The notes under the pieces: model-generated
What the model saw: only the letters and a program-made list of their open reading frames with translations
Database searches by the model: none
What the model was told of the DNA's origin: nothing
Made by a program: the position numbers and the translations under genes
NCBI GenBank assembly: GCA_019414325.1
Contig: DXMG01000003.1
Span: 28,271 to 92,270, forward strand
Length of the DNA: 64,000 nucleotides
Direction of reading: 5' to 3'
Origin: Collinsella sp.
Lineage (GTDB): Bacteria > Actinomycetota > Coriobacteriia > Coriobacteriales > Coriobacteriaceae
Part shown: one piece after another, positions 4,674 through 52,027 of the stretch
How the letters are laid out: the number at the start of each line of letters is the position of its first letter
How positions within the stretch are numbered: the first letter of the stretch is position 1

Positions 4674-4718
4674 AACCTGCCATGTAGGGACAGGTTTATT
4701 TTGGTAGGTTTTACCTGC
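4674..4718 (+). repeat. GGGACAGGTTTATTTTGG-family element, copy 1
   Basis: AACCTGCCATGTAGGGACAGGTTTATTTTGGTAGGTTTTACCTGC directly after the purF stop. The 18-mer is identical in all three copies. Confidence 0.8.
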
Positions 4719-4830
4719 TGTTTTGTTGATATGGCGGCGCGTGCTGTTATGGCACGCGCCGAAATGAACGCAACTATGAGCACCGTTTGGCGCCCGCGCG
4801 GCGCCACGGTAGTGGGAGAGGAAGGCTCAG

Positions 4831-7242: not shown

Positions 7243-7315
7243 GGTGGGGCTGAGTCGGCACTTGGGGACTGTCCCTAACTGCCGGCTGCCAGAGCTGTCC
7301 CCTTTGCACCAAAAT

Positions 7316-7344
7316 GGTGCAGATTAATCTGTCCCCAATGCACC
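7316..7344 (+). repeat. GTCCCC-loop hairpin (stem GGTGCA/TGCACC)
   Basis: GGTGCAGATTAATCTGTCCCCAATGCACC. Neighbouring GGACTGTCCCTAACTGCCGG (7266-7285) is identical to 60238-60257. Confidence 0.6.
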
Positions 7345-7412
7345 AAGCGTGCCGCGGGGGCTGCGTTGTGACACAATGGCGTTTGTTCGATTCGTTATGC
7401 GAAAGGCCAACT

Positions 7413-28918: not shown

Positions 28919-29018
28919 CGCGAGGCGCCCGCGCTCAAAGATAACGATGACAACGAAGCCCTCTTCGGCCTGTGCCGGGGAGGGTCTCGCCTATCTGGGG
29001 AATGGGGTTGCCAGCGCT

Positions 29019-29059
29019 CTATTCCTCAAAACTGAAAAATTTTCGTTTTTGAGGAATAG
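29019..29059 (+). repeat. 41-nt AT-rich palindromic hairpin, copy 1
   Basis: CTATTCCTCAAAACTGAAAAATTTTCGTTTTTGAGGAATAG. Confidence 0.9.
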
Positions 29060-29104
29060 AATTAAGCCAGCTCGGCCTTTTGCGAGGTATATTCGTTGCA
29101 GAGC

Positions 29105-29145
29105 CTATTCCTCAAAACTGAAAAATTTTCGTTTTTGAGGAATAG
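29105..29145 (+). repeat. 41-nt AT-rich palindromic hairpin, copy 2
   Basis: Identical to copy 1. Ends 27 nt upstream of the ATPase start. Confidence 0.9.
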
Positions 29146-29171
29146 CGATAAAAGACCGCAGGGAGGCGCCA

Positions 29172-30368
29172 ATGAAACTCATCAATAGAACGTCATACAT
29201 GGACATGTTGACGAGCCTTATTGGCGTGCCGGACATCAAGGTCATAACGGGCATTCGCCGTAGCGGTAAGTCAAAATTGCTCGAGGCCCTCCGCGATTAC
29301 GTGGAGGCAAATCTGTCCAATTCGAATGTCATCCATATCAATTACAACCTCGACGAGTTCGAGGGCCTGCTCGAATATCATGCCCTGCTCGCCTATGTGA
29401 AAGAGCATCGAGTGTCCGACAAGCAAAACTTCCTGCTTATCGACGAGGTTCAGATGTGCGACGGCTTTGAACGCGCGATCAACAGCCTCCATGCATCCGA
29501 GCAGTACGACATCTTCATCACCGGATCGAACGCCTTTTTGCTGTCGAGCGATCTGTCGACGCTCTTTACGGGGCGCACGTTCGAGATCGAGGTTTTCCCA
29601 TTCTCGTTTGAGGAGTATCGCCTCTATAGTGACGAGGGCGAGGTCGATCGCGACTTCGATGAGTACGCGAGAACCGGCGGTATGTCCGGTTCTTACCCTT
29701 ATCCACTGCAGGAGCAGCGCTACCAATATCTCTCCAATGTCTTCAAAACGCTCATCGTGAGGGATATCGTGCAGCGGCATAACGTGAGAAACGAATCGGC
29801 ACTGCTGCGCATTGCCGTTTACATGATGGACAACGTCTCCAACATAACGTCGGCACGCACCATTACAGATGTTTTGAATGCGGATGGGCTAAAGATTACG
29901 AACAAGACGGTCGGCACGTACATGGGGTACCTGTGCGATGCGTTTGCCTTCTATAAAGTTCGTCGGTACGACATTCGCGGCAATAAATACCTTAAGAGCG
30001 GCGAGAAGTATTACCTGGCAGACCACGCGTTCAAATACGCACTGCTTGGTACACGTGATATGGATTGGGGACGCGTATACGAGAACATGGTGGCCATCGA
30101 GCTGCTGCGCCGCGGATACGAGGTATACGTCGGTGTGCTCTATAAAAAGGTAATAGACTTTGTAGCAATCAAGCGAAGCGAGAAGCTCTACATTCAGGTG
30201 AGCGACGACATCAACTCGGATAAGACGTTTGAACGCGAGATTTCGCCACTGCTGAGCATTGGCGATGCGTATCCCAAGATGATTCTTGCCCGCACGCATC
30301 ACGAGGCCACGGATCGCGATGGGGTGCAGATCGTGGACCTGGCGAGGTGGTTGTGCGGCGAGGCTTAG
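29172..30368 (+). CDS. AAA-type ATPase (AAA_14 + DUF4143-like architecture)
   Basis: Walker A GIRRSGKSKL and Walker B FLLIDEVQ. C-terminal block YYLADHAFKYALLG ... ENMVAIELLRRGYEVYVG is typical of this family. Composition looks lower in G+C. Confidence 0.7.
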   Translation: MKLINRTSYMDMLTSLIGVPDIKVITGIRRSGKSKLLEALRDYVEANLSNSNVIHINYNLDEFEGLLEYHALLAYVKEHRVSDKQNFLLIDEVQMCDGFERAINSLHASEQYDIFITGSNAFLLSSDLSTLFTGRTFEIEVFPFSFEEYRLYSDEGEVDRDFDEYARTGGMSGSYPYPLQEQRYQYLSNVFKTLIVRDIVQRHNVRNESALLRIAVYMMDNVSNITSARTITDVLNADGLKITNKTVGTYMGYLCDAFAFYKVRRYDIRGNKYLKSGEKYYLADHAFKYALLGTRDMDWGRVYENMVAIELLRRGYEVYVGVLYKKVIDFVAIKRSEKLYIQVSDDINSDKTFEREISPLLSIGDAYPKMILARTHHEATDRDGVQIVDLARWLCGEA

Positions 30369-30377
30369 CAAAAAAAT

Positions 30378-30420
30378 CCTATTCCTCAAAACTGAAAAAT
30401 TTTCGATTTTGAGGAATAGG
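30378..30420 (+). repeat. 41-nt AT-rich palindromic hairpin, copy 3
   Basis: CCTATTCCTCAAAACTGAAAAATTTTCGATTTTGAGGAATAGG. Starts 10 nt after the ATPase stop. The asymmetric loop has the same orientation as copies 1 and 2. Confidence 0.9.
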
Positions 30421-30454
30421 ATTGGCGGCTGGTTGCTGCGACCTGGCGTTTACT

Positions 30455-31228
30455 CTATCCCAGCTTCTGCATGCGGCGGTAGATTTCGCAGATGCCCTTG
30501 ATGGTGAGTTGCCCGTCGACCACGTCGAAGGCATCGGTCGAATCGGCGACAATGCCGGCGAGACCGCCCGTGGCGATAACGGTGGCGTCCTCGCGGCCCA
30601 GCTCGCGCTTCATGCGCGTGACCAGGCCCTCGGCCATGGCGGCGGCGCCCATCACGGCGCCGACCTTGATGCACTCTTCGGTGTCGCGACCGATGGCGTG
30701 CTCGGGCGCCTCGAGCGGCACGCTGGCGAGCTTGGCGGCTCGGGCGGCAAGCGCGTCCATGGAGATGCGGATGCCCGGCGCGATCGCCCCACCAATGTAA
30801 TAACCGTCCTCATCGATGACGTCGATATTGGTCGCGGTGCCAAAGTCCACCACGATTGCCGGCGCGCCGTAGAAAGTCTCAGCTGCGACGGCGTTGGCGA
30901 CGCGGTCGGCACCTACGGCCTGGGGGCGCGCCGCGCGCAGCTTGGTCACGGCGGCCGTCTGCGGCCCGATGACGATGGCGTCCGCCGCGATGCGGTCGGC
31001 CACGGCGTGCCACTCGCGCGAGAGCTGCGGCACCACGCCCGCAAAGGCGATCGCGTCAACCGCATCGAGCGAGAGGCCGTACATCTTAAAGAAACCCATC
31101 AGGCGCACGTGGATCTCGTCGGCGGTATAGGAGCGGTCGGTGGGCATGCGCCACGACTGCACCAGCTCGTCTCCGTCAAACAGGCCCATGGCCGTCTGCG
31201 TGTTTCCCATATCGATAGCGAGCAGCAT
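30455..31228 (-). CDS. coaX: type III pantothenate kinase
   Basis: Start trimmed from 31483 (that extension would overlap the tRNA) to the ATG at 31228. MLLAIDMGNTQT, VVDFGTATNIDV and IATGGLA motifs. Confidence 0.85.
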   Translation of the reverse strand: MLLAIDMGNTQTAMGLFDGDELVQSWRMPTDRSYTADEIHVRLMGFFKMYGLSLDAVDAIAFAGVVPQLSREWHAVADRIAADAIVIGPQTAAVTKLRAARPQAVGADRVANAVAAETFYGAPAIVVDFGTATNIDVIDEDGYYIGGAIAPGIRISMDALAARAAKLASVPLEAPEHAIGRDTEECIKVGAVMGAAAMAEGLVTRMKRELGREDATVIATGGLAGIVADSTDAFDVVDGQLTIKGICEIYRRMQKLG

Positions 31229-31424
31229 GTCTACTCCCGGTGTCGGCATAAAAGGACGCGCACCATTGTATACGTGCCATCGACGGCGCTCGGCTGTGAT
31301 TCGTTTACGGTGATAAGGGCTGAGAGGTTTAAATATGAAGGAATTATGCTCTACGAGATTTTCCTTGCCGTTTACCGAACTCCCACGTAATATTCTTTCT
31401 TGCGCACATGAGGCGCCCAGACAT

Positions 31425-31501
31425 TGCGGGGTGGAGCAGTCTGGTAGCTCGCCGGGCTCATAACCCGGAGGTCGTAGGTTCAAATCCTGCCCCCGCGACC
31501 A
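31425..31501 (+). tRNA. initiator tRNA-Met (anticodon CAT)
   Basis: 77-nt cloverleaf built by hand: 7-bp acceptor, D arm GAGC/GCTC, anticodon arm CCGGG-CTCATAA-CCCGG with three consecutive G:C pairs, T arm GTAGG-TTCAAAT-CCTGC, encoded CCA. The 1:72 pair is a weak U.G. Long identity with the E. coli tRNA-fMet core. Confidence 0.9.
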
Positions 31502-31510
31502 AGAACTTGC

Positions 31511-31540
31511 AGCTCGTCGGCCTAGCCGGCGAGCTTTTTG
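31511..31540 (+). terminator. intrinsic terminator after tRNA-fMet
   Basis: 10-bp stem AGCTCGTCGG/CCGGCGAGCT, 5-nt loop, then TTTTT. Confidence 0.75.
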
Positions 31541-31581
31541 TTATTCCGGGACCGTGTTTTTCGGTCCAATTCTCAGCCTCT

Positions 31582-31735
31582 CAAACAAAATCTCGATCTG
31601 TAACATCTAGACCCGATTTGGGCGGCTAGGTGTTACAGATTGAGATGTTGAGTTCCCGCCTGGACGGTTTGTCTAAATCTGTAACACGAGGGATGGATTT
31701 TGCCGAGTTGTTGTTACAGATTGAGATTTTGTTGT
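31582..31735 (+). mobile_element. ~155-bp double-hairpin element, unit 1 (CTGTAACA family)
   Basis: Two hairpins (31590-31646 and 31670-31727) with arms ATCTCGATCTGTAACA/TGTTACAGATTGAGAT. Outer TIR CAAACAAAATCTCGATCTGTAACA / TGTTACAGATTGAGATTTTGTTG. Confidence 0.75.
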
Positions 31736-31983
31736 TGCTCTCCTTTATGAGTGAATCTCGACTCTTTTTATTATGTGAGGCGGACGGGCTATCGATAATC
31801 ACGGGCCGGATGGATTGACTTGTCGATTGATAGACTCCAATTGGAAGGAGCTGCGACGACCCTTAACGATCCTTAACTAGAAACAGTGACGTCTTAAAAA
31901 CAATAAAGGGGCCGCTATGTAGGGGCCGTCTATACGATGCCTTTGACTTACACTTCTTTATGGAGCCATGTAAGGAGGCGGCA

Positions 31984-33426
31984 ATGCAGCAACCCATCGC
32001 GACAAACGATGTGATTCTATTTTCCACTCTCAGGGAGAATCAGTACTTCGATCGAAAGAGCGCCCGCAAGGATGACAAGGAGATTGCGAAGCATATTAGT
32101 GCATTCGCCAACTCGGCGGGAGGCAAGCTCGTTATCGGTATCGAGGATAATGGTGAGGTAACGGGCTTCAAGCGTAACGGCGCGCGCGACATTGAGAAAT
32201 TCGAGCGCGCTGCGCTCACGACTTGCACGCCAACCCCTATTGTCCGCAAAGACCGAATCCCCGTGGTCAATTCTTCGGGCGAGGAGGACTTCGTTCTCGT
32301 TTTGGACATCGATGCCTCGACCAACCACTCTGTTGCTCGCGTGAGCGACGGCGAGGTTTTCTTGCGGCAGGACGACAAGAGCGTGAGGCTCAGCCGCGAA
32401 CAGGTATTTGCCCTCGAGTACGATAAGGGGCAGAGAATCTTCGAGGACGAGCTTGTTGAGGATTCCTCCCTAGATGACGTGGACCATGAAGTGCTTGATC
32501 GCTACAAAGGGATTCTTGGAACCGAAGTTTCCGACGAGCAGGTCCTTAGAAGTCGTCGTTTTATGCGTGACGGAAAGCTGACCGTTGCTGGAGCCCTGCT
32601 ATTCGCGCTGGATCCGTCCGCGATGATGCCACAGGCGCGAGTCCGTGTCCTGCGCTACGACGGCGTCAAAATGGAGACGGGCGAGCGTCTCAACATCACG
32701 AAAGAACGAAGCTTCTGTGGGCCGCTGCCTAAGGTGATCCAAGACGCCTACGAACTCATCTCGAGCATGCTCCGCGAATTTCAGTTCCTGGGGCCCGACG
32801 GGAAATTCCAGACCGTGCCTGAGTATCCTGAGTTCGCCTGGTTCGAGGGCTTGGTCAACGCGGTGACACATCGCGACTACTCGTTCCGCGGCGACTACAT
32901 CCGGGTCTCGATGTTCGACGACCGTTTGGAAATCATCAGTCCAGGCGCGCTTCCCAATATCGTGACGCTCGACAACATGAGGACCACTCGTTACTCGCGC
33001 AACCCACGCATCGCGCGCACGCTGGTTGAATTCGGTTGGGTTCGGGAGCTAAACGAGGGCGTCAAGCGCATTTATACCGAGATGCAAAACTCTCTGCTCA
33101 ATGATCCGGTCTACACGGAACCTGATGGGGCAAGGGTTCAGCTAACGCTTGAGAACAATATCGTTGCCAGAACCGTAAGGAGAAGCGAGGCTCTCGAGGA
33201 CAAGGTATCACCGGAGGTGATCGCCTCATTGGGGGAGTATGAGCTCGCCGCCGTCAGGTTGGCCTTTGCGAACGGAAGGGTGACAGCAAGGGAGCTTGCA
33301 GCACACATCGGGAGAAATCGCCGCACAGCAAGCCGGGTGCTTGGTAAGTTAATTGAGGAAGACGGTCTGCTCGAATGGCACGGCTCATCCCATAACGACC
33401 CAAAACAGTTCTACACGATAAGGTAG
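31984..33426 (+). CDS. AlbA_2 (Schlafen-like) domain protein with HATPase_c_4-like domain and C-terminal wHTH
   Basis: ATG at 31984 follows AAGGAGG (the ORF track starts at 31960). ENQYFDRKSARKD ... ISAFANSAGGKLVIGIEDNGEVTGF matches the AlbA_2 pattern. NAVTHRDYSFRGDYIRVSMFDDRLEIISPG matches the HATPase_c_4 pattern. Confidence 0.65.
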   Translation: MQQPIATNDVILFSTLRENQYFDRKSARKDDKEIAKHISAFANSAGGKLVIGIEDNGEVTGFKRNGARDIEKFERAALTTCTPTPIVRKDRIPVVNSSGEEDFVLVLDIDASTNHSVARVSDGEVFLRQDDKSVRLSREQVFALEYDKGQRIFEDELVEDSSLDDVDHEVLDRYKGILGTEVSDEQVLRSRRFMRDGKLTVAGALLFALDPSAMMPQARVRVLRYDGVKMETGERLNITKERSFCGPLPKVIQDAYELISSMLREFQFLGPDGKFQTVPEYPEFAWFEGLVNAVTHRDYSFRGDYIRVSMFDDRLEIISPGALPNIVTLDNMRTTRYSRNPRIARTLVEFGWVRELNEGVKRIYTEMQNSLLNDPVYTEPDGARVQLTLENNIVARTVRRSEALEDKVSPEVIASLGEYELAAVRLAFANGRVTARELAAHIGRNRRTASRVLGKLIEEDGLLEWHGSSHNDPKQFYTIR

Positions 33427-33441
33427 GGTGGTCGATCTATT

Positions 33442-33525
33442 TCGCACCTCTGTCGCAGTAATGTCGCACCTCTGTCGCAGTAATGTCGCACCTCTGTCGC
33501 AGTAATGTCGCACCTCTGTCGCAGT
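33442..33525 (+). repeat. perfect 22-bp tandem repeat, ~3.8 copies
   Basis: Unit TCGCACCTCTGTCGCAGTAATG at 33442, 33464 and 33486, with a partial unit at 33508. Begins 16 nt after the AlbA_2 gene stop. Confidence 0.9.
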
Positions 33526-33562
33526 GGCTTCGATGACGCGTGGATATAGTCCCTCGGCAAAT

Positions 33563-33714
33563 CTCAAACAAAATCTCAATCTGTAACGGGTAGGGGTCAA
33601 AAGCGGGCCTAGATGTTACGGATTGAGATTGTTGAGGATGGGCCGAGGGGAATGTCTTGATCTGTAACACGAGGGACGGATTTTGCCGAGTAGCTGTTAC
33701 AGATTGAGATTTTC
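33563..33714 (+). mobile_element. ~155-bp double-hairpin element, unit 2
   Basis: Hairpins 33572-33630 and 33654-33710. The left end TCTCAAACAAAATCTCAATCTGTAAC nearly matches unit 1. Confidence 0.75.
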
Positions 33715-33720
33715 TGGCAG

Positions 33721-33880
33721 GCGGGTTTGGTTTGTCTCAATCTGTAACAGGTAGGGGTCAAAAGTGGGCCTAGCTGTTACAGATCTAGATTGTTGAGGAT
33801 GGGTTGAGAGGAATGTCTCGATCTGTAACAGGTAGACCCCGGTTTTGCTGAGTAACTGTTACAGATCGAGACAAACCCGC
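33721..33880 (+). mobile_element. ~160-bp double-hairpin element, unit 3
   Basis: Hairpins 33734-33790 and 33815-33872 (the latter a perfect 16-bp stem). Outer TIR GCGGGTTTGGTTTGTCTC ... GAGACAAACCCGC. Confidence 0.75.
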
Positions 33881-34007
33881 TTTTGGGCTCACCCCATCCA
33901 CCCGCCGCCACCTGATATTCGCCGATTTCCGTTGCGCCACTGCGCTCCCATGCCATATCCTCTAGACAACTACGCGGCAACATCGCCGCCGCGCCTATAA
34001 GAGAGGA

Positions 34008-36159: not shown

Positions 36160-36492
36160 GCTCCGGTGGATGGCAATGCGCGGTAATCATGAGGAGTAAG
36201 GACGTCTACTGCCTTGCCGATTGCTCAAAATTATTGGGGGAGGGGTTAATAACTATATCCTCTATGCCAAAGGACATAAAGAGATGTCAATTTTGTTGAC
36301 AAGCGAATGACGATTAGCTGCGAGCCAGCTACCAGCGTAAATAATCGATAAAGAAATGTCGTAAATTGGTGCCAAATGCCCAGATGCCGCCGTGCGATTT
36401 TCAATTAACTGTTACGCGCAAACAGCAAAATGCTACTATCTAACATGCACGTAAGAAAGCAGATTAACGGTTAAGGCTAAGAAGTGGCAGGT

Positions 36493-36888
36493 ATGTCGGA
36501 AGCAACAAGGACTCGCACGCATGCGCCCGAGGTTAGGCAGCGCGCCGTCGAGGTCCTCCAAGAGGGGGTCGGTCATCGCGCCCTCGCCGCGGAGCTCTGC
36601 ATTCCCCAGGCCACGGCTCGTCAGTGGGCCCGCGCATATGCCGTGGGCGGTGCCGACGCCGTTCTCAACGCCGGTTCGCATCATCACACCTATTCGTACG
36701 AAGTTAAGCTCGCCGTGGTCAAGGACCGCTTGGAAAACGGCTTAACGGTTCGCGAGGCCATGATCAAGCACAAGATTCCTAGCGAGTCTTCGGTCAAGGC
36801 TTGGTGCCGTCAGTACCGCGAGAGCGGTGAGTCCGCACTGGTCGATAAGCCGCGCGGTCGCAAGCCGCGCGTTAAAAAGGCGGAATAG
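36493..36888 (+). CDS. orphan helix-turn-helix protein resembling an IS3-family OrfA
   Basis: About 131 aa with two HTH-like segments (GHRALAAELCIPQATARQWARAY; TVREAMIKHKIPSESSVKAWCRQY). No DDE OrfB follows and I saw no terminal inverted repeats. Confidence 0.5.
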   Translation: MSEATRTRTHAPEVRQRAVEVLQEGVGHRALAAELCIPQATARQWARAYAVGGADAVLNAGSHHHTYSYEVKLAVVKDRLENGLTVREAMIKHKIPSESSVKAWCRQYRESGESALVDKPRGRKPRVKKAE

Positions 36889-42737: not shown

Positions 42738-42771
42738 GGGGCCGGTGGGGCAAAAATGCCCCACCGGCCCC
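42738..42771 (+). terminator. strong hairpin after echF (no clear T tract)
   Basis: Perfect 13-bp stem GGGGCCGGTGGGG/CCCCACCGGCCCC with an 8-nt loop. Confidence 0.5.
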
Positions 42772-42802
42772 GCGCGTGAACGCGCGGTTGGGCTGCCGCG
42801 AA

Positions 42803-42956
42803 CAAAACTATGCCGGATTACTACGATAAATCGCCTACCCTCAACCACACCGCGTTTGGCAAAACAAAAACCGCAGGTAGACGGCTCGCAGTTTTGCGAA
42901 AAAGTCGCGCGTGATCGGCGACCTCGTTTTTATCGTAGTAATCCGGCATAGTTTTG
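42803..42956 (+). mobile_element. TIR element M1 (154 bp)
   Basis: Perfect 28-nt TIR CAAAACTATGCCGGATTACTACGATAAA / TTTATCGTAGTAATCCGGCATAGTTTTG. The core holds the hairpin AAAACCGCAGGTAGACGGCTCGCAGTTTT. Confidence 0.8.
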
Positions 42957-42983
42957 AAATGGCACCATATCCGTAACAGCCTT

Positions 42984-43015
42984 TGATCCCCTCGGGGACG
43001 GAGGAAAACGGATCA
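42984..43015 (+). repeat. conserved short hairpin H1 (TGATCCCCTCGGGGACGGAGGAAAACGGATCA)
   Basis: Recurs at 43224-43254 and 51105-51135, each time ~25 nt downstream of a TIR element. Contains GGGGAC. Confidence 0.75.
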
Positions 43016-43062
43016 TTTTGGCCTTGCGAGGGCTGCCACGTGGCCCGTCTGCCACGAAATGC

Positions 43063-43198
43063 GCCCATCTACTACGTTTAGGCTGCCACCCTCAACCATG
43101 GCGAACGACGCAAAAACAAAACCGCAGGTAGAACGCCTGCAGTTTTTCATTAAACGCGGTTATGGTCAGGGGTATCGGGTCAAACGTAGTAGATGGGC
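43063..43198 (+). mobile_element. TIR element M2 (136 bp)
   Basis: 17-nt TIR GCCCATCTACTACGTTT / AAACGTAGTAGATGGGC. The core is homologous to M1 (ACCCTCAACCA ... AAAACAAAACCGCAGGTAGAACGCCTGCAGTTTTT). Confidence 0.8.
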
Positions 43199-43223
43199 CA
43201 GTTTTGAGGCGAGCACCACCAAT

Positions 43224-43254
43224 TGATCCCCCGGGGACGGAAGAAAGCGGATCA
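43224..43254 (+). repeat. conserved short hairpin H2
   Basis: TGATCCCCCGGGGACGGAAGAAAGCGGATCA. Confidence 0.7.
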
Positions 43255-43302
43255 TTTTTGCCTGATGGCTCCGAGTCGCACCCGTTTTCCTGCGAAAATG
43301 CC

Positions 43303-43418
43303 GTGTCTCAACTTTGGTGAGACATTTGTCTCACGCCCAAAACGGAATCTGGAACATGTGTCACCTGCCCAAATTGTGTCTCATTTCGTAACTTTAGGCT
43401 GATGCAAGGTCTGAGACC
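43303..43418. promoter_or_regulatory. cluster of TGTCTCA/TGAGACA half-sites upstream of the adhesin gene
   Basis: GTGTCTCA at 43303-43310, TGAGACA at 43317-43323, TGTCTCA at 43327-43333, TGTGTCA at 43357-43363, TGTGTCTCA at 43375-43383 and the palindrome GGTCTGAGACC at 43408-43418. Confidence 0.35.
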
Positions 43419-43435
43419 GCGAGAAGGGAGACGCG

Positions 43436-46400
43436 ATGAGTAAGTACACGAGGGGTCTCTTGGCGGTGATACTTGCCGTAGTGCTTGTGTTGCCGGCTGC
43501 AGCATTTGCCATGCTGCCCGAGGCCAACGCCAGGTCCAGCACCGGAATGGACGGACCGACAATGAGCGGAAAGGTCGTCGTCGATCCCGACACCAGCGGA
43601 CGCTGGGAAATCTGGGCGGCCGGTCACAACGGTAATAAAGTAACGACTCAAAACGTCGGCCGAATCTGGACCGACAAGACGGTCAAGAAAGCCGGAGAAA
43701 ACGAAGCGTCAGATTTTGTGACTACGCTTTCGGCCATGTCCTCGACGTCTAATTCAACCGTGACGGTTACCACACCGCTTGACATCGTGATGGTGCTGGA
43801 TGCCTCTGGCTCGATGGATGATGAGATGGGCAGTGGAGATCGCACCAAGCGTATCGATGCGCTCAAGAGCGCTGCCAACAGCTTTATCGATACCATCGCC
43901 AAGCAAAACGAGGGTATCGAGGGCGTGGATAGGCAGCATAAGGTTGCTATCGTTAAGTTTGCGGGCAAGAAGTCCAGCAAGATCGGCAACGATACGTATC
44001 GTGACGGAGGATACACCTACAATTACACACAGGTTATGAAAGACTTGACCGATTGCTCCGGCGGCAACGTGAAAGCTCTTAAGGATAGGATTGCCAAGAT
44101 TACACCCGCTGGTGCCACGCGTGCCGACAATGGCCTGCAACTGGCAGAGGGTATCGCTTCTGGTCGCGCGGACGCCAAGAAGATTGTTGTGTTCTTTACC
44201 GACGGCACGCCAACGAAAGTTGACGAGTTTGATCCTACGGTTGCTGACGCTGCTGTGACGGCTGCCAAGAACATGAAGGACAGCAAGGCCACCGTTTATA
44301 CTATCGGCATCTTTGATGGCGCGAACCCCAGTGCTGGTATCCAGGATTCGGGAAAAAGACAAAAAGAGAACAAGTTCATGCAGGCCGTTTCGAGCAACTA
44401 CCCCAATGCCACGGCATGGGATGCCCATGGTGCACGCGCGGAAAACTCCGACTACTACAAGTCGGCGACCAATGCCGAAGAGCTCAAGAAGGTCTTTGAC
44501 GACATCTCACAGGCCATCACATCGGAGGCGCCTTATCCGACCGAAATCCATAAGGGCTACGACGAGACCAAGTCCGGCTACATCACGTTTACCGACGAGC
44601 TGGGCGACTTTATGCAGGTCGACAGCTTCACCGAGGTCGTCATCAACGGCACGCCGTTTACCAAGACGGACAAAACGGTCAACAAAGAGACCAATACCGA
44701 CACCTACGAGTTCGCCGGCAAGGCAAAAGACCTGCTCATTACCGTGCAGCGTGCTGGTGATGACAATCCCCAGAAGGGCGATGTCGTAACGGTCAGCATT
44801 CCTGCGTCGTTGATTCCGCTGAGCCACTTTAAGACCGTAGACGGCAAACTTTCGGTCGACAACGTTAAGCCCATTCAGGTGAAGTATGCCTCGAGCGTGA
44901 AGAAGGGCGCACTCGAAAACCTGTTTACGCCCGAGAAAGTCACGGGACTCAAGAACTACATCGAGAACAATACGACTGTCGTTGACGGCACCAAAACCGT
45001 TAACTTCTACGCTAACAAGTGGGAGACCGGCGCGTTGGGTAATACGGTCGCGACCTTTGAGCCGGCCGACACCAACCGCTACTACTACTTCCAGAAGCAG
45101 ACTCCCATTTACGCGGACAAGGACTGCACACAACCCGCAAAGAATTCACTGGCAGAGAAAGGCACCTATTACTACAAGGATGAGTTTGAGGAGCAGGGCG
45201 AGAACGGCGAGGCCAAGCCCGCCACTGCCGTCATCGAGTTTGTCGGCGGCGACGCTGCGAAGTTTGACGGCGCTCTTGTTGCCGACGAGGACGACAACCT
45301 TTCGTTTAGCGTGGGAACCGCGCGTCTGGCCTTTATCGACGAGCTCCATACCACCAAGAAGAGCAACGACACTGGTACTGCGACTGACGTTCTCAACCCC
45401 AAGTGGAACAACGTGTCCGCCAAGGCGACCGCGACGCATGTCAATTCCTACCTGGGCAACAACGGCAAGATCAGCTTTAACGTGACGCCGGCAACGGTGG
45501 ATACCAAGACGAGCTTTGGCCTGACCAAGGTGCTCGAGGGTCGCGAGTGGACGGATGCGGACAAGTTTAAGTTTGAGCTCTCCGCGACGTCCGAGAATGA
45601 TGCCCCGATGCCCGCACCCGCGACCGCGACTGTGACCAAGGCGAACCTGGATGACAAGGGCAAGGCGGCCATTAACTTTGGCGAAATCACCTACAACAAG
45701 CCGGGCGAGTACACCTATGAGGTCCGCGAGGTCAAGGGCGACGCCGGTGGCATCACCTACAGCAAGAACGTTGCCACGTTCAAGGTGACCGTGGCGGTTA
45801 AGGTCACGGGTGGGCTTAAGGCTGACGTTGAAAAGATCTCGGGCGAGACCGAGTTCAAGAACACCTATAGCGCCAAGACGGAAACCTCGCTGACTCTTGA
45901 GGCAACCAAGAAGCTCACGGGGCGCCCGATGGCCGATGACGAATTTAAGTTTGCGCTGAGCTATGCGGAGCACGACGAGGTTCTGCTGGATGCAACCAAC
46001 AAGGGCGGCAAGGTTGAGTTCGGTCCGCTGACGTACACGACCAAGTCGCTCGCCAAGCTGGTCGAGGAAGACAAGGCATCGCTTGATGCTAGCTCAGGCA
46101 AACCGACGTGGACCATTCATTACATTGCTGCCGAGCAGACCGGCAAGCTGCCTGCGGGCGTGAGCGCCACAGTGTCGGCAATTGACGCGTATGTGACCGT
46201 TGTCGACAACGGCGATGGTACCCTGACGGCGACGGCTGTCTACGGCGATGCCGGCAACGAGTTCGTGAACACCTGCACTGCCGCGCCTGCCGAGGCATCG
46301 CTTGTGGGCAAGAAGAATCTGCAGGTTCCTAAGGGCCTGACCCCGGCTGACATTGCCGGCAAGTTCACCTTTACCGTGACCGGTGAAGAGGGCGCACCCA

Positions 46401-49400
46401 TGCCCGCGAACGCGAGCGTGACCAATGATGCCAAGGGCAAGGTCGACTTTGGCAAGATTACCTTTACGCTCGACGACCTTAACAAGGCTCTGGGTGAGAA
46501 GTCCGAGAAGCGCGAGCACACCTTTACCTACACCGTGACCGAGTCCGGCGAGGTCGCTGGCGTGACCAACGACGCTAAGCCGTCGCGCGAGGTTTCCTTC
46601 ACCGTGACCGATGACTGCAAGGGGAATCTGCGCGTATCCCGCAAGCCGGACGGTGATGCGGCCTTCACGTTCACCAATACCTATAACGTGACGCCTGTCG
46701 AGACGAGCGTCACCGAACAGATCACCGCGACCAAGGTCCTGACCGGCCACGATCTCAAGGATGGCGAGTTCTCCTTCGAGCTCGTCGAGGGCGACAAGGT
46801 CGTCGCTACCGGCACCAACGCCGCCGATGGCACAATCGTCATGGACAAAATCACTTACGATAAGCCCGGCACTCACACCTACAAGCTGCGCGAGAAGCTC
46901 CCCAACGAAGCGGGGCTGAGCAACGGGATTACGTACGATAAGACGAACTACACCATCAAGACGAGCGTCATCGACAACGGCGACGGCACGCTTAAGGTGA
47001 CCCATACGCCCGAGGGCACCAAGCCGGCGCGCTTTGAGAACAAGTACAACACTGCCCCGAACGAGTCCAGCGTTACCGACCAGATCACCGCGAAGAAGGT
47101 CCTGACCGGCCGCGACCTCAAGGCCGGAGAGTTCTCCTTTGAGCTCGTCGAGGGTAACGATGTCGTCGCCAAGGGCACCAATGCGGCCGACGGCAAGATC
47201 ACGATGGACAAGATCACCTACACCGAGGCCGGCGAGCACACCTACACGCTGCGCGAGGTCAAGGTCGACGCCGACAACGGTATCACCTACAGCACCGCGG
47301 CCTACACCATCGTGACCGCCGTCACCGATGATGGCAATGGCAAGCTCACGGTTAAGCATGAGCTGCAGGACGTCGAGAAGGCTGTCTTCGAGAATGCCTA
47401 CAGCGTTACTCCGAATAACTCCAGCGTCACCGACCAGATCACCGCGACCAAGGTTCTGGACGGACGCGACCTCAAGGCCGACGAGTTCTCCTTCGAGCTC
47501 GTCGAGGACGGCGAGGTCGTCGCCACCGGCGCTAACGACGCCGATGGCAAGATTACCTACACCGCCGCCGGCAAGCACACCTATATCCTGCGCGAAGCCA
47601 AGGGCGCCGAAGGCAACGGCATTACCTACGACAGCACGACCTACACCATCGTGACTACCGTTACTGATGACGGCAATGGTAAGCTCACGGTCAAGCACGA
47701 GCTGCAGGGCGCCAACGAGGCGAAGTTCAACAACAGCTACAAGCCGAATCCTAACGAGTTCAGCGTCACCGACGAGATCAAGGCGAACAAGGTCCTGACC
47801 GGCCGCGATCTCAAGGACGGCGAGTTCTCCTTCGAGCTCGTCGAGGGCGAGGGCGAGGATGCCAAGGTCGTCGCCACCGGCAAGAACGCCGCCGATGGCA
47901 AGATCACGATGAGCGCCGTGAAGTACGACAAGGCCGGAACGCACACCTACACGCTGCGCGAGGTCAAGGGCAACGCCGGCGGTATCACCTACAGCGATGC
48001 CAAGTTCACCATCGAGACCACCATCACGGACAACGGCGACGGTACCCTCAAGGCCGAGCATGTCCTGAAGGACGCCGAGGCTGCGACCTTCGAGAACACC
48101 TACAGCGTGACCCCGCTCGATGCAGAGCTCGACTTTGACCTGAACAAGGTCATCAGCGGCCGCGACTGGACGGATGGGGACGAGTTCAGCTTTACCATCA
48201 CCGCCCCCGAAGGCGCCCCGCTGCCCGATCCTGCAACCGTAACCGTGAGCAAGCACGATGCGAAGGATGGCATCGCTGCCGTCAAGTTCGGCAAGATCCG
48301 CTACACGGCTGCCGGAACCTACACGTACGAGATCCGCGAGAACGCGGGTAACGCGGCCGGCATGGCGTATGACGGGCATGTCGCGACCGCCGAAGTGACC
48401 GTGACTGAGGACGGCGAGGGCAAGCTGACCGCCAATGTCACCAAGAAGGAAAACGGACGCTTCACCAACACGTACCGCACTGAGCTTAACTACACCGCGG
48501 CCGGCGGCCTCAAGCTCAGCAAGAGCCTCTCCGGACGTCCTATGACCGAGGGTCAGTTCACGTTTACCGTGACGCCTGCCGACGAGGCCTCGGCCAACGC
48601 GCTTGGCCTGCTGCCCGGGGCCAACAGCTTCAAGTCCCCCGAAGCGGCAGAGGCAACGGTCGGACTGATCGACATTCTGGCTGGTCATGAGGTTAAATTT
48701 ACGCAGGCTGACGCCGGCAAGACCTTCAAGTACACCGTGGCCGAAAAGAACGACGGCCAGCCCGGTTACACCTACGATGACGCCGTACGCACGGTGACGA
48801 TCGCCATCGCCGACGACACCGCCGGTACGCTCTCTGCTACGACGACCGTTTCCGGTGGTCCCGAGGGTACGCATACGACGGTCCACAAGAGCGGTGAGAA
48901 CAAGGTCGAGAGTGCCCTGGTCCCGTTCCACAACAGTTACAGCGCTACGACCAATACGCCTGGTGGTACCGCTGCTCAGGTTGTCGCCACCAAGACCCTG
49001 ACCGGTCGCCCGATGGTCGACGGCGAGTTCTGGTTCGGCATCGCCTATCAGGGTGAGCTTGTGGCATACGAAAACCTCAAGCCCAATATCGGCGGGCACG
49101 TGAGCTTTGATACGCTGCACTACGACACTAAGATGCTTGCTAATCTTGAGGCTGCTGGGCTTGCTTATCGTACCGATAAGGACGGCAAGCTTGCCTGGAC
49201 CATTAACTACACGGCTTACGAAGATTTATTCGGGCTGCCGAATGGCGTTTCCGCTACAACGTGGAGCTTTGGCTTTAAGGTTATCGTCGTCGACAACGGT
49301 GACGGTACCCTGACGGCGACGGTCGACTACGGCGGCGTCGAGCCCTTGTTCGAGAACGTCTACGGCGCCGACGCCGTGGATGCCGCGCTCACCGGTACTA

Positions 49401-50800
49401 AGAAGCTCCAGGTTGCCGAGGGCCTGACCCCGGCCGACATCACGGGTAAGTTCACCTTTACCGTGACCGCCGACGAGGCAGGTGCCCCGATGCCCGAGCG
49501 CACGACCGTAACCAACGACGCAGCCGGTAACGTGGACTTTGGCAAGATCCACTTTACGCTCGAGGACCTCAACCGCGCTCTGGGCGTGACGGACGATGCG
49601 ACCGATAAGGCCGAGGCAGACGAAGCTGACGACGTCGACGCTGACGAGGCAGAGGCCGACGCCGACGCTGATGCCAACGTTGACGAGCCCGGCGACGAGT
49701 CCGAGCCCGCAGCCCCCACCGCCCCGCGCTCGCACACCTTTACCTACACGGTGACCGAGTCCGGCAGCGCCCCTGGCGTGACTAACGACACCAACGCCAC
49801 GCGCAAGGTTTCCTACACCGTGACTGACGACGGTGCGGGACATCTGATCGTCAAGCGCGACGGCGGCGACGGTGCGGCCTTTACGTTCACCAACACGTAC
49901 GGCGTGGCACCTACCGATTCTGTCGTGACCGATCAGGTCAAGACCGTCAAGCGTCTGACCGGACGCGACCTTGCGGCTGGCGAGTTCACGTTTGATCTGC
50001 TCGAGGACGGCGTGGTTGTCGCTAGCGGCACCAACGACGCCAACGGCACCGTTACGCTGAGCCCGATCCGCTACGAGGCACCCGGCACGCACACGTACAC
50101 GCTGCGCGAGGCTTGCCCCAACGCACTCGGCCTGTACAAGGGCGTCACCTATGACAGCGCGACCTACACCGTCGTGACCACCGTCTCCGACAATGGTGAC
50201 GGCACGCTGACCGCGACGCACAAGCTCGAGGGAACCACCGAGTCGGCTGGCTTTACCAACAAGTACCACGCCATGCCCACGCAGGTTTCCATCGGCGCCA
50301 TCAAGGTGCTCGAGGGACGCGAGCTCAAGAAGGACGAGTTTAGCTTTAAGCTCGTTGGCGAGGACATCGAGTCTACGGTTACCAACGATGCCGACGGCAA
50401 GATCAACTTCGACAAGTTCGAGTACGACGAGCCTGGTACGTACGTCTACACCATCAGCGAGGTCAAGGGCGACGAGGCCGGTATGACCTACGACAAGTCC
50501 GTCTTTACCGCGACCGTCAACGTGGTCGACGACGGCGAGGGCAACCTCAGGGCGAACATCGCCTTTACCAAGGGCGACAAGAGCGTCGAGGGTATCGTGT
50601 TCAACAACACGTACAAGAAGCCCGAGACGCCCGTGCCGACGCCCGATCCCGGCACGCCCAAGACCGTGACGAACATCGTCAAGACGGTCAAGGGTTTCCT
50701 GCCCACCACGGGTGACCAGCAGGCCGCCGCACTGCTCATGGCATTCGTCATCGCCATGGCCGGCGTCGGAGCCCTGGTTTGGGGTATCCGCAAGCGCTAG
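43436..50800 (+). CDS. giant LPxTG cell-wall-anchored adhesin: vWA domain plus many Spy0128/FctA-type isopeptide-linkage-like repeats
   Basis: Signal peptide (LLAVILAVVLVLPAAAFA). MIDAS DIVMVLDASGSMD and VVFFTDGTPT. Tandem ~115-aa repeats (SSVTDQITAxKVLTGRDLKxGEFSFELVE ... GxHTYTLREVKG ... GITY ... DNGDGTL). C-terminal LPTTGD, TM helix and RKR. Confidence 0.9.
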   Translation: MSKYTRGLLAVILAVVLVLPAAAFAMLPEANARSSTGMDGPTMSGKVVVDPDTSGRWEIWAAGHNGNKVTTQNVGRIWTDKTVKKAGENEASDFVTTLSAMSSTSNSTVTVTTPLDIVMVLDASGSMDDEMGSGDRTKRIDALKSAANSFIDTIAKQNEGIEGVDRQHKVAIVKFAGKKSSKIGNDTYRDGGYTYNYTQVMKDLTDCSGGNVKALKDRIAKITPAGATRADNGLQLAEGIASGRADAKKIVVFFTDGTPTKVDEFDPTVADAAVTAAKNMKDSKATVYTIGIFDGANPSAGIQDSGKRQKENKFMQAVSSNYPNATAWDAHGARAENSDYYKSATNAEELKKVFDDISQAITSEAPYPTEIHKGYDETKSGYITFTDELGDFMQVDSFTEVVINGTPFTKTDKTVNKETNTDTYEFAGKAKDLLITVQRAGDDNPQKGDVVTVSIPASLIPLSHFKTVDGKLSVDNVKPIQVKYASSVKKGALENLFTPEKVTGLKNYIENNTTVVDGTKTVNFYANKWETGALGNTVATFEPADTNRYYYFQKQTPIYADKDCTQPAKNSLAEKGTYYYKDEFEEQGENGEAKPATAVIEFVGGDAAKFDGALVADEDDNLSFSVGTARLAFIDELHTTKKSNDTGTATDVLNPKWNNVSAKATATHVNSYLGNNGKISFNVTPATVDTKTSFGLTKVLEGREWTDADKFKFELSATSENDAPMPAPATATVTKANLDDKGKAAINFGEITYNKPGEYTYEVREVKGDAGGITYSKNVATFKVTVAVKVTGGLKADVEKISGETEFKNTYSAKTETSLTLEATKKLTGRPMADDEFKFALSYAEHDEVLLDATNKGGKVEFGPLTYTTKSLAKLVEEDKASLDASSGKPTWTIHYIAAEQTGKLPAGVSATVSAIDAYVTVVDNGDGTLTATAVYGDAGNEFVNTCTAAPAEASLVGKKNLQVPKGLTPADIAGKFTFTVTGEEGAPMPANASVTNDAKGKVDFGKITFTLDDLNKALGEKSEKREHTFTYTVTESGEVAGVTNDAKPSREVSFTVTDDCKGNLRVSRKPDGDAAFTFTNTYNVTPVETSVTEQITATKVLTGHDLKDGEFSFELVEGDKVVATGTNAADGTIVMDKITYDKPGTHTYKLREKLPNEAGLSNGITYDKTNYTIKTSVIDNGDGTLKVTHTPEGTKPARFENKYNTAPNESSVTDQITAKKVLTGRDLKAGEFSFELVEGNDVVAKGTNAADGKITMDKITYTEAGEHTYTLREVKVDADNGITYSTAAYTIVTAVTDDGNGKLTVKHELQDVEKAVFENAYSVTPNNSSVTDQITATKVLDGRDLKADEFSFELVEDGEVVATGANDADGKITYTAAGKHTYILREAKGAEGNGITYDSTTYTIVTTVTDDGNGKLTVKHELQGANEAKFNNSYKPNPNEFSVTDEIKANKVLTGRDLKDGEFSFELVEGEGEDAKVVATGKNAADGKITMSAVKYDKAGTHTYTLREVKGNAGGITYSDAKFTIETTITDNGDGTLKAEHVLKDAEAATFENTYSVTPLDAELDFDLNKVISGRDWTDGDEFSFTITAPEGAPLPDPATVTVSKHDAKDGIAAVKFGKIRYTAAGTYTYEIRENAGNAAGMAYDGHVATAEVTVTEDGEGKLTANVTKKENGRFTNTYRTELNYTAAGGLKLSKSLSGRPMTEGQFTFTVTPADEASANALGLLPGANSFKSPEAAEATVGLIDILAGHEVKFTQADAGKTFKYTVAEKNDGQPGYTYDDAVRTVTIAIADDTAGTLSATTTVSGGPEGTHTTVHKSGENKVESALVPFHNSYSATTNTPGGTAAQVVATKTLTGRPMVDGEFWFGIAYQGELVAYENLKPNIGGHVSFDTLHYDTKMLANLEAAGLAYRTDKDGKLAWTINYTAYEDLFGLPNGVSATTWSFGFKVIVVDNGDGTLTATVDYGGVEPLFENVYGADAVDAALTGTKKLQVAEGLTPADITGKFTFTVTADEAGAPMPERTTVTNDAAGNVDFGKIHFTLEDLNRALGVTDDATDKAEADEADDVDADEAEADADADANVDEPGDESEPAAPTAPRSHTFTYTVTESGSAPGVTNDTNATRKVSYTVTDDGAGHLIVKRDGGDGAAFTFTNTYGVAPTDSVVTDQVKTVKRLTGRDLAAGEFTFDLLEDGVVVASGTNDANGTVTLSPIRYEAPGTHTYTLREACPNALGLYKGVTYDSATYTVVTTVSDNGDGTLTATHKLEGTTESAGFTNKYHAMPTQVSIGAIKVLEGRELKKDEFSFKLVGEDIESTVTNDADGKINFDKFEYDEPGTYVYTISEVKGDEAGMTYDKSVFTATVNVVDDGEGNLRANIAFTKGDKSVEGIVFNNTYKKPETPVPTPDPGTPKTVTNIVKTVKGFLPTTGDQQAAALLMAFVIAMAGVGALVWGIRKR

Positions 50801-50878
50801 GCACGCTGGCAGCGCCCGGGGCCAAAAGGCCCCGGGCGGCTAGCGGGGAGCCAAAACACAGCCCCCACCCCACCCCTG

Positions 50879-50919
50879 GCCGCCACGGAGGTATCTCCCT
50901 CCTCCGTGGCGGCACTTTT
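50879..50919 (+). terminator. intrinsic terminator after the adhesin gene
   Basis: 13-bp stem GCCGCCACGGAGG/CCTCCGTGGCGGC followed by ACTTTTG. Preceded by a second hairpin at 50813-50838. Confidence 0.75.
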
Positions 50920-50944
50920 GTGTGCCGGGGGCGCCACGAAACCG

Positions 50945-51079
50945 GCCCATCTACTACGTTTGGTCCCTTACCCCCAACCATGCCAAAAACGCGAAAACAA
51001 AACCGCAGGTAGAACGCCTGTGGTTTTCTGCAAAACCGGGGTATGGTCGGGGGTGTCGACTCAAACGTAGTAGATGGGC
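50945..51079 (+). mobile_element. TIR element M3 (135 bp), same family and orientation as M2
   Basis: Identical 17-nt TIRs. Flanks are also conserved (GCCACGAAA on the left, CAGTTT on the right). Confidence 0.8.
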
Positions 51080-51104
51080 CAGTTTCGTGGCGAGCGGTTC
51101 CGGC

Positions 51105-51135
51105 TGATCCCTTGGGGACGGAGGGAAACGGATCA
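51105..51135 (+). repeat. conserved short hairpin H3
   Basis: TGATCCCTTGGGGACGGAGGGAAACGGATCA. Confidence 0.7.
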
Positions 51136-51183
51136 TTTTGGTCCCGCTAGGCTGGCGGAGGCACTCGTGCAGGGCCGCCCGAA

Positions 51184-51337
51184 CAAAACTATGCCGGTTT
51201 ACTACGATGAATTCGACATTCCCGACCATGACTGCATTTTTCTAAATATTGCAAGCGTTCTACCTGCGCTTTTGCAAGCGCGCAATTTGCCGTGGTCGAA
51301 GGTGGACGATTCATCGTAGTAAACCGGCATAGTTTTG
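51184..51337 (-). mobile_element. TIR element M4 (154 bp), M1 family, core inverted relative to M1 although outer flanks are direct
   Basis: 29-nt TIR CAAAACTATGCCGGTTTACTACGATGAAT / ATTCATCGTAGTAAACCGGCATAGTTTTG. The reverse complement of the core aligns with the M1 core (CCACCTTCGACCAC ... GCGCAGGTAGAACGCTTGCA). Flanks GGGC(C/T)GCC(C/G)CGAA and AAATGGCA match M1 in direct orientation. Confidence 0.7.
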
Positions 51338-51397
51338 AAATGGCATTAAAGCGGTAGCAGCTATTTTGCTATGCCGGGGCGCTTGGCCTTTGGGCAA

Positions 51398-52027
51398 CTA
51401 CCCTCGCAGGTAGGCGATGGCGATCTGCGTGCGGTTGCGCAGGCCCATTTTGGCAAGGATCGAGCTGATGTGGTTGCGTACCGTGCCTTCGCCCATATAG
51501 GCGGTGGCAGCAATCTCCTTGTTGTCGAGGCCGCGGGCGATGAGCTCTGCGACTTCGAACTCGCGGTCGGTCAGGCTGGCAAAGGCGGCGGGCCGGCGAG
51601 GCGTGTCGGCCTCGGACCCCGCCCCATCAAAGTCGATATCCTCGATCGCCTTGCCCTCGAGCACGCGTTTACCGTCCATGACCTGCGCCAGTGCTGGCGG
51701 AATGGCGGCGACATCGGTCTTGATCAGGTAGCCGCGGGCGCCCAGCTTGAGCGCCGACACAATGTACTCGTCATCCGAGAATGTCGTCAGAAACACCACG
51801 CGTGCCGCAGGGTCGTGCTCAAGGATCTCGCGTGCCGCCGAAAGTCCGTCGCGCCCCGGCATCTGAATGTCGAGCAGCGCGATATCGGGCGCGTGCTCGC
51901 TGTAGAGCGCGACCGCCTCGTCGCCATTGGCGCCGGTACCCACCACTTCGATCTGCGGCTGGGCGCCCAGGATAATCTTGAGCGAATCGACCACCAAGCG
52001 GTCGTCGTCGACAACGATGAGCCTCAT
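51398..52027 (-). CDS. NarL/LuxR-family response regulator
   Basis: Receiver domain (MRLIVVDDD ... DIALLDIQMPGRDG) and LuxR HTH (LTDREFEVAELIARGLDNKEIA ... TVRNHISSILAKMG). Confidence 0.9.
   Translation of the reverse strand: MRLIVVDDDRLVVDSLKIILGAQPQIEVVGTGANGDEAVALYSEHAPDIALLDIQMPGRDGLSAAREILEHDPAARVVFLTTFSDDEYIVSALKLGARGYLIKTDVAAIPPALAQVMDGKRVLEGKAIEDIDFDGAGSEADTPRRPAAFASLTDREFEVAELIARGLDNKEIAATAYMGEGTVRNHISSILAKMGLRNRTQIAIAYLRG

Follow-up and report, generated by a model that had tools for sequence, protein, structure and literature searches.

Palindromic intergenic repeats of Collinsella at a surface adhesin locus with natural presence and absence of the adhesin gene

The window analysed here is a stretch of 64,000 nucleotides from Collinsella sp. 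(contig DXMG01000003.1), in which the gene for a large LPXTG surface adhesin of the pilus type is bracketed by four palindromic repeat units, M1 to M4, accompanied by three short hairpins, H1 to H3, that resemble repetitive extragenic palindromes (REP). We consider it probable (about 0.72) that M1 to M4 are Collinsella-specific palindromic intergenic repeats, kept at fixed sites and in fixed polarity, whose recombination removed or inserted the adhesin segment. Natural haplotypes with and without the adhesin establish a presence/absence polymorphism of this gene, and the event behind it may have been either a loss or a gain. An initial annotation of the same DNA had read M1 and M4 as a possible inverton; this appears to have been a false lead, a phase-variable switch not being supported for the units flanking the adhesin. 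The repeat family to which they belong occurs in a very common genus of the human gut and is undescribed in full-text searches, which returned nothing relevant on Collinsella inverted repeats or invertons. The large adhesin is, in turn, a repeat-bounded presence/absence polymorphism of natural Collinsella populations, which is relevant to how strains differ in attaching to the host and to breaks in metagenome assemblies. With repeat subtypes denoted A, B and C and core polarity in brackets, the unit order in the window is B(+), A(+), adhesin, A(+), B(-), and the features of the locus are the following:

42738..42771, + strand: terminator hairpin of the ferredoxin/hydrogenase operon, just left of M1, with a 15-bp perfect stem; kept in orthologous loci
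42803..42956, + strand: M1, type B palindromic repeat with 28-nt perfect arms; core of + polarity
42984..43021, + strand: H1, REP-like hairpin, TGATCC..GGGGACGG..GGATCA followed by TTTTGG
43051..43210, + strand: M2, type A palindromic repeat with 17-nt perfect arms (43063-43198) inside 49-nt imperfect arms; core of + polarity
43224..43261, + strand: H2, REP-like hairpin
43262..43435, + strand: promoter and probable operator region of the adhesin, with TGTCTCA repeats; within the segment missing from adhesin-less haplotypes
43436..50800, + strand: LPXTG surface adhesin of 2454 aa, with a VWA domain and 13 FctA (Spy0128-like isopeptide) repeats
50879..50913, + strand: terminator hairpin of the adhesin gene, a 13-bp stem followed by a T run
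50932..51092, + strand: M3, type A palindromic repeat with 53-nt arms that are 83% complementary and include 17-nt perfect arms (50945-51079); core of + polarity
51105..51141, + strand: H3, REP-like hairpin
51184..51337, - strand: M4, type B palindromic repeat with 29-nt perfect arms; core of - polarity
51398..52027, - strand: LuxR-type response regulator gene (Response_reg and GerE domains), convergent, the first gene right of the array

All positions that the initial annotation had given for M1 to M4 and H1 to H3 were confirmed. The arms of M1 and M4 (28 and 29 nt) are 100% complementary and enclose 96-98 nt, and the 17-nt GCCCATCTACTACGTTT arms common to M2 and M3 are likewise real, the palindromes of these two units reaching further as imperfect arms of 49-53 nt. 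Both arm patterns are unique to their respective sites in the window, with 0.00 (M1/M4) and 0.09 (M2/M3) matches expected from shuffled sequences, and a relaxed hairpin pattern for H1 to H3 gave three matches (42994-43019, 43233-43258 and 51114-51139) where 0 were expected. A homologous core is present in all four units, as had been noticed, with the centre AAAA[C/G]CGCAGGTAGA, which M1-M3 carry on the + strand and M4 on the - strand. The sequences just outside M1 and M4 are conserved as first read, with GGGCyGCC(s)CGAA on the left and AAATGGCA..GTArCAGC on the right. Computational alignment bore out the reverse-complement orientation of the M4 core that had been deduced by hand from a comparison with M1, with scores against M1-M3 of 76-86 for the reversed and 18-25 for the direct orientation. 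Similarly, the family profile scored 131 bits for M4 on the - strand and 56 bits on the + strand, and 127 bits for M1 against 53 bits for its opposite polarity. The cores of M1 and M4 are only about 63% identical, indicating that M4 is a diverged paralogue in opposite polarity and not a flipped M1 segment. The cores of M2 and M3 are 84% identical in direct orientation, and these units are the left and right members of a direct repeat pair that brackets the adhesin. Terminator-like structures were predicted at the centres of M2 (on both strands) and of M1, and a simple consensus scan, which may miss actinobacterial promoters, found no sigma-70-like promoter in M1, in M4 or in either repeat region.

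The polarity of the units is constant across assemblies. The order of the locus (hydrogenase/ferredoxin operon, M1, M2 where present, adhesin, M3, M4, LuxR-type regulator and kinase) is kept across Collinsella species, and in 15 conspecific metagenome contigs the polarity of every unit present agrees with that in the window. At the assembly level, no change of orientation of any unit was seen in these 15 contigs, in other species or in ten adhesin-less contigs. A type B copy at the M4 site has (-) polarity throughout, be it in the window, in five other genomes or in any of the adhesin-less contigs (about 29 contigs overall), and one at the M1 site has (+) polarity throughout (about 16 contigs), across strains and species. 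The M1 site of conspecific strains holds either a type B or a type C(+) copy, and in some species a type C(+) copy occupies the M4 site between identical flanks and with identical outer arms, replacing B(-). The apparent flip of the M4 site among species is thus due to replacement of B(-) by the C(+) subtype and not to inversion of the same core, and the opposite polarity of M4 is probably a stable property of that copy, not the state of a switch. Neither a serine nor a tyrosine recombinase was found among the neighbours of the locus or among 20 further open reading frames (ORFs) of the window. With cores of such low identity, no promoter-like site, no recombinase found and a polarity fixed across assemblies, the inverton reading of M1 and M4 is not borne out.

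The recombination part of our reading comes from haplotypes that lack the adhesin. The order ferredoxin-M1-H-A-H-M4-LuxR, with no adhesin, was found in one metagenome-assembled genome (L106, in which M1 is of type C) and in nine contigs of a metagenome collection, the latter retrieved with a gapped pattern requiring the left linker of M2 and the right linker of M3 about 250 nt apart. Where these contigs are long enough, the ferredoxin and LuxR genes directly flank an array of three or four units, and BLAST gave no match to adhesin or adhesin-promoter sequence in any of the nine. The adhesin-less contigs differ mutually by 8-13% and therefore represent independent assemblies of diverged lineages, for which a single misassembly cannot account. 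In all ten haplotypes the single A unit is of M2 type at 11 diagnostic columns and then of M3 type at 3, with one contig switching slightly later, and the switch region is the longest stretch common to M2 and M3. Such a block pattern, M2 on the left and M3 on the right, is expected of a product of M2 x M3 recombination and equally of an ancestral site into which the adhesin integrated. The initial annotation had also suggested that the direct repeats would let homologous recombination delete or amplify the adhesin gene as a route to antigen variation. Repeat-mediated loss or gain is supported by the natural adhesin-less haplotypes with their M2/M3 hybrid unit, and there is no sign of a frequent, programmed route to antigen variation. 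A second polymorphism concerns M2 and H2, which are both missing from three other species and from 5 of the 15 conspecific contigs, M1 being there of type C; this insertion or deletion is bounded by H repeats and not by M arms.

Outside this locus, a pattern made of the shared arm core and the constant spacing identified more than 119 M-family loci in a representative-genome collection, nearly all of them in Collinsella; the exceptions were one chance match in Clostridium and two contigs from bins labelled Bacteroidales. A profile built from the M copies detects 159 elements in about 38 distinct genomic site classes and separates the two polarities cleanly. The units measure about 155-175 bp, with near-perfect terminal inverted repeats of about 30 bp, and their inner length is 122 nt in 118 of 129 copies. 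Three subtypes are distinguished by their arms, GCCACGAAAnnGGCCYATCTACTACGTTT in type A, CAAAACTATGCCGGTTTACTACGATGAAT in type B and CAAAACTATGCCGGTTTACGGGGCTG in type C, with the outer 19 nt of the arm common to B and C, and the arms end in GCCACGAAA or CAAAACTATG. The centre, AAAACCGCAGGTAGA, is an asymmetric stretch of 15 nt; across 70 non-redundant copies, which are otherwise about 65% identical to one another, it is conserved at 97% per column, and the stem partner expected for it is not conserved. A near-invariant centre of this kind points to a putative sequence-specific reader. The arms covary among subtypes, both sides having changed in 34 of 63 pairs, and 71% of their cells are Watson-Crick, a share that is 61% in shuffles and drops to 21-33% once the partner is slid. 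A role of M as a structured, strand-specific RNA was considered and rejected: G-T and A-C mismatches are about equally frequent (106 and 127), with no G-T excess, and gathering and permissive searches of Rfam gave no meaningful match, at or near threshold, which argues that the palindrome is kept at the DNA level.

The M copies are found in ordinary genomic surroundings. According to gene contexts called with a codon log-odds model, 63 copies lie between convergent, 58 between tandem and 6 between divergent genes, which places the M elements at the 3' ends of genes. In the tandem contexts, 36 copies are co-oriented with the genes and 22 anti-oriented, so that no clear rule ties M orientation to gene direction. 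Genes beside M code for ValS, FolC, an M24 peptidase, ArgS and others, and most copies are single. Since the nearest relatives of each M copy of the window are its orthologues in other genomes, the copies appear to be inherited vertically. The linker and REP hairpin that flank M are themselves repetitive and part of the repeated unit. Several M loci are present per genome, and copy number appears low, with three places found by BLAST in a 0.9 Mb C. aerofaciens record. A search of a plasmid collection matched only a 0.9 Mb C. aerofaciens replicon, and no phage match that would indicate a phage origin was obtained. Four of 34 pattern matches in IMG/VR (L159, L163, L182 and L188) are true M elements on contigs classed as viral, the other 30 having arisen by chance. 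In locus L036, an ORF at 138-833 that resembles IS110-family transposases is located about 1.7 kb away from an M element. In addition, a further family of intergenic inverted repeats, AAGTTGCGGTGGAATAGTTCC ... GGAACTATWTCACCGCAACTT, was seen in Collinsella, often just 5' of a ribosome-binding site (flanks of L071, L072, L007 and L025).

H1 to H3 are most plausibly REP-type hairpins, with the M/H arrays forming mosaics that resemble bacterial interspersed mosaic elements (BIMEs). A GGGAC[A/G]G loop motif between A- and T-runs is common to three hairpin families, named H1, H2 and R2, with 85, 34 and 28 copies, respectively, in 1.17 Mb of fetched DNA. The motif occurs in co-orientation at most 87 nt from 46% of M elements, compared with 2% of random intergenic windows, and type A copies are essentially always co-oriented with the neighbouring REP hairpin. 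A hairpin of R2 type is also present in the window at 4676-4720 (CCTGCC..AGGGACAGG..GGTAGG, then a T run), right after a gene stop. A match to the centre motif at 4710-4724 was discarded as a further M copy, as it belongs to a REP-type hairpin and not to an M element.

Hairpins of the R2 type also flank a gene resembling those of REP-associated tyrosine transposases (RAYT), in L077 and L138. A tblastn search with a RAYT query matched one locus among those fetched (L077), and a query with IS200 TnpA gave no match in them. The ORF (L077, 3782-4540) scores 33 bits with Pfam Y1_Tnp (cut-off 23) and 69 bits with NCBIfam REP_Tyr_transpos, below the cut-off of 80 bits. The gene is single-copy and lies between inverted R2 hairpins carrying GGGACAG, whose stems are lineage-specific and covarying, with GGGACAG kept; inverted, lineage-varying hairpins flanking a RAYT gene are a described signature of REP-RAYT systems (PMC3116915, PMC5581495). 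Its homologues are abundant, one 90%-identity cluster counting 2701 members, and the neighbourhood ArgS-CarD-...-aldehyde dehydrogenase (Aldedh) is kept from 96% to 42% protein identity (L138-L145, L189-L194). Several syntenic Collinsella loci, such as L107 and L058, gave no RAYT match. A conserved TTTCGGCAGGTAGCAGCTATAGT precedes the start codon of the RAYT-like gene (L138 at about 3940-3975, L189 and L190); it includes GCAGGTAG, an 8-mer also contained in the invariant centre of M, a coincidence that could be due to chance with about 36 occurrences expected in the data set. An action of the RAYT-like enzyme on M is a lead only.

In the account that we favour, REP-linker-M-linker-REP mosaic arrays, in which M is associated with GGGAC[A/G]G hairpins, stand at gene 3' ends, and the M copies are passed on vertically at fixed sites and in fixed polarity. 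The combination of the same flanks with opposite cores would arise because B and C units share their palindromic outer arms and linkers: recombination between neighbours within an array would remove one unit or the other, so that either core could end up between the same flanks. A suitable substrate is found in L154, an adhesin-less metagenome contig with a four-unit array, M1(C+)-H-A(+)-H-B(-)-H-C(+), at 6980-7997 directly before the LuxR gene. From a tandem such as its B(-)-H-C(+), recombination in the outer arms could explain fixed flanks with opposite cores without any invertase. M2 with H2 and M3 with H3 form a diverged direct repeat around a 7.9 kb segment comprising promoter and adhesin, and homologous recombination in the conserved right arms of M2 and M3 has, in this account, at least once excised or integrated this segment, giving one hybrid unit. 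The everyday role of the elements is likely that of terminator or insulator at gene ends and of substrate for rearrangement, and their origin likely lies in a REP/BIME-like repeat system or in one of miniature inverted-repeat transposable elements (MITEs), possibly tied to the single-copy RAYT-like Y1 transposase.

Several observations weigh against this account. Assemblies show the majority orientation only, so that inversion at low frequency would be invisible in them, and type B copies lie in either polarity with respect to the REP hairpin next to them, implying past inversion or two-way insertion at least a few times. As to the number and direction of the adhesin events, one switch region is common to all ten hybrids, which is compatible with one ancient event and equally with a recombination hotspot. 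Haplotypes with and without the adhesin are moreover interspersed in the neighbour-joining trees of both flanking genes, and these trees are short and star-like, fitting one ancient event followed by recombination or recurrent events. As to the mechanism of mobilisation, no target-site duplication was found at the arm ends in any site class, and about 1.2 Mb of fetched Collinsella loci showed neither a longer nor an autonomous element with M-type arms. The RAYT-like gene is flanked by REP hairpins and not by M elements. Finally, the near-invariant asymmetric centre implies a reader that the favoured account does not name.

Among the alternatives, the one that survives best, doubtful as it is, treats M as well as H as substrates of the RAYT-like Y1 HUH transposase, in the manner of REP doublets forming hairpins (REPINs). 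The enzyme would recognise the GTAG arms and centre as a single-stranded hairpin and copy REP-linker-M units to new intergenic sites. Consistent with this are the RAYT-like gene at a fixed locus with its inverted, co-evolving GGGACAG hairpins, the more than 10-fold enrichment of M beside co-oriented hairpins of that type, the GTAG in both M arms (CGTAGTAG) and in the invariant centre (GGTAGA), the maintenance of the palindrome at the DNA level, and a vertical, long-lived inheritance of M as described for REPINs. However, M does not flank the RAYT-like gene, it is one long palindrome and not a pair of inverted REP hairpins, it is present in genomes whose syntenic locus gave no RAYT match, and the RAYT-like protein falls short of its NCBIfam cut-off (69 vs 80 bits). 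A comparison with the REP, BIME and REPIN-RAYT systems of Gammaproteobacteria likewise shows both sides. In both, palindromes are clustered as mosaics at the 3' ends of genes, linkers are conserved, the repeats persist vertically over long times, GTAG recurs, and a single-copy gene for a Y1 HUH enzyme lies between inverted copies of its hairpin (PMC3116915, PMC5581495), whereas here the host is a Gram-positive actinobacterium (Coriobacteriia), the hairpins flanking the RAYT-like gene are of the short GGGAC[AG]G type (H/R2) and not M, M is a single 170-bp palindrome and not two inverted REPs, and the REP copies around M are direct and not alternating. The link to a conserved RAYT-like gene with co-evolving hairpins nevertheless offers a Gram-positive setting for ideas on REPs and REPINs that have so far concerned mostly Gammaproteobacteria. 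Carried further, though we hold it unlikely, these elements might constitute an undescribed, vertically inherited system of REP-RAYT type in Coriobacteriaceae, in which GGGAC[AG]G hairpins and the 170-bp M would be co-replicating modules, the centre AAAACCGCAGGTAGA would be recognised or nicked by a domesticated Y1 transposase, and the arrays would shape gene ends and the presence of the adhesin cassette. If this were true, REP-linker-M arrays would drive the presence or absence of a surface-adhesin cassette in a commensal prevalent in the human gut.

Correia elements (NEMIS/CREE) of Neisseria and the ERIC/IRU elements of enterobacteria are non-coding repeats of about 100-160 bp with terminal inverted repeats of about 26-30 bp and subtypes that vary in their arms. 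They are dispersed in intergenic regions near gene ends, can form long hairpins, can act as terminators or processing sites and serve as substrates of recombination. M elements resemble them in non-coding palindromic form, terminal inverted repeats, arm-defined subtypes, dispersal at gene ends and a likely role as terminators and substrates of recombination, but differ in having no TA or other target duplication, an apparently low copy number, an almost invariant asymmetric centre of 15 nt, arrays with REP-like hairpins and a restriction to Collinsella. A classical MITE origin, in which M would derive by deletion from an insertion sequence with a DDE transposase and about 30 bp of terminal inverted repeat, would have been moved in trans and would by now be mostly inactive, seems unlikely to us. 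The terminal inverted repeats kept on both ends within each subtype, the small size, the lack of coding capacity, the dispersal over about 38 sites and the position at gene ends, where insertions are tolerated, are all in its favour. It is at odds with the lack of target-site duplications and of a longer element with the same arms in the Collinsella DNA mentioned above, with the inclusion of the linker and REP hairpin beyond the arms in the repeated unit, and with insertions or deletions whose observed boundaries are H repeats instead of M arms. M elements are an undescribed, genus-restricted family within the known class of palindromic intergenic repeats, be they MITE-, REP- or BIME-like.

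A dedicated cassette system is improbable. Type A units would in this case resemble att sites: like attC of integrons, they would let a site-specific recombinase bring in or cut out cassettes, the adhesin among them. Two direct A+H units do bracket the adhesin, adhesin-less haplotypes do carry a single hybrid unit with one switch region in all cases, and elsewhere a peptidase gene also lies between two direct M copies. M moreover shares with attC the form of imperfect palindromes of uniform length that vary in sequence with complementarity kept and that bracket a gene which may be present or absent. Nevertheless, no integrase and no intI gene was found among the neighbours or the tested ORFs of the window, and there is no attI site and, by inspection, no R'/R'' boxes of attC type (RYYYAAC / GTTRRRY), the arms ending in GCCACGAAA or CAAAACTATG instead. 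Most M copies are solitary at ordinary housekeeping genes, and the switch region coincides with the longest stretch that M2 and M3 have in common, which is what homologous recombination predicts.

Least probable of all is an active inverton, in which a site-specific recombinase would flip the inter-arm segment of M1 or M4 and thereby switch a promoter or terminator for the adhesin or the neighbouring regulator: as in fimS, hin, the Bacteroides capsule promoters and other invertons of the PhaseFinder type, perfect inverted repeats (28-29 nt) surround a short asymmetric segment beside a surface-protein gene, M1 and M4 have shared outer flanks with opposite core polarity, and at several unrelated sites type B is found in either polarity with respect to the hairpins beside it, but the arms are only 96-98 bp apart, the M1 and M4 cores are not the same segment, the alternative allele of the M4 site is a different subtype, type B keeps its orientation at both sites, the assemblies contain no orientation polymorphism of one same segment, neither a promoter inside M nor a recombinase was found, and the adhesin has its own conserved promoter region downstream of M2 and H2.

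This promoter region is 93-98% identical between species, above the identity of the 5' coding part of the adhesin gene, and judging by its conservation the TGTCTCA-bearing sequence is probably the operator of a regulator. Three direct copies and one inverted copy of TGTCTCA were observed at 43304-43383, with TGTCTCA-N7-TGAGACA at 43304-43324. The first 1.2 kb of the adhesin gene are 71-87% identical between species (window 43436-44600 compared with L010, L031, L046, L061 and L080), and the promoter, the last 1.1 kb (compared over window 49800-50930) and the flanking genes 92-98%. The length of the adhesin varies from 2097 to 2459 aa across species. In L128 the adhesin call has no N-terminal VWA part and consists of 2166 aa with FctA domains only, where a 5' frameshift is possible; a 1360-nt gap in this locus, tried as room for extra M units, was rejected as such and reflects a difference in gene calling or the possible frameshift.

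Elsewhere in the window, a sortase gene is located at 60-929, about 42 kb upstream of the LPXTG adhesin, and a 134-aa ORF with HTH_28/HTH_Tnp_1, similar to the N-terminal domain of transposases, at 36484-36888, just before the hydrogenase operon. A patch of lower GC content (0.50-0.56) at 29000-34000 contains an AAA_14/DUF4143 ATPase gene, a tRNA-Met (31425-31501) and a Schlafen AlbA_2/HATPase_c_4 gene, and may represent a small island beside a tRNA.

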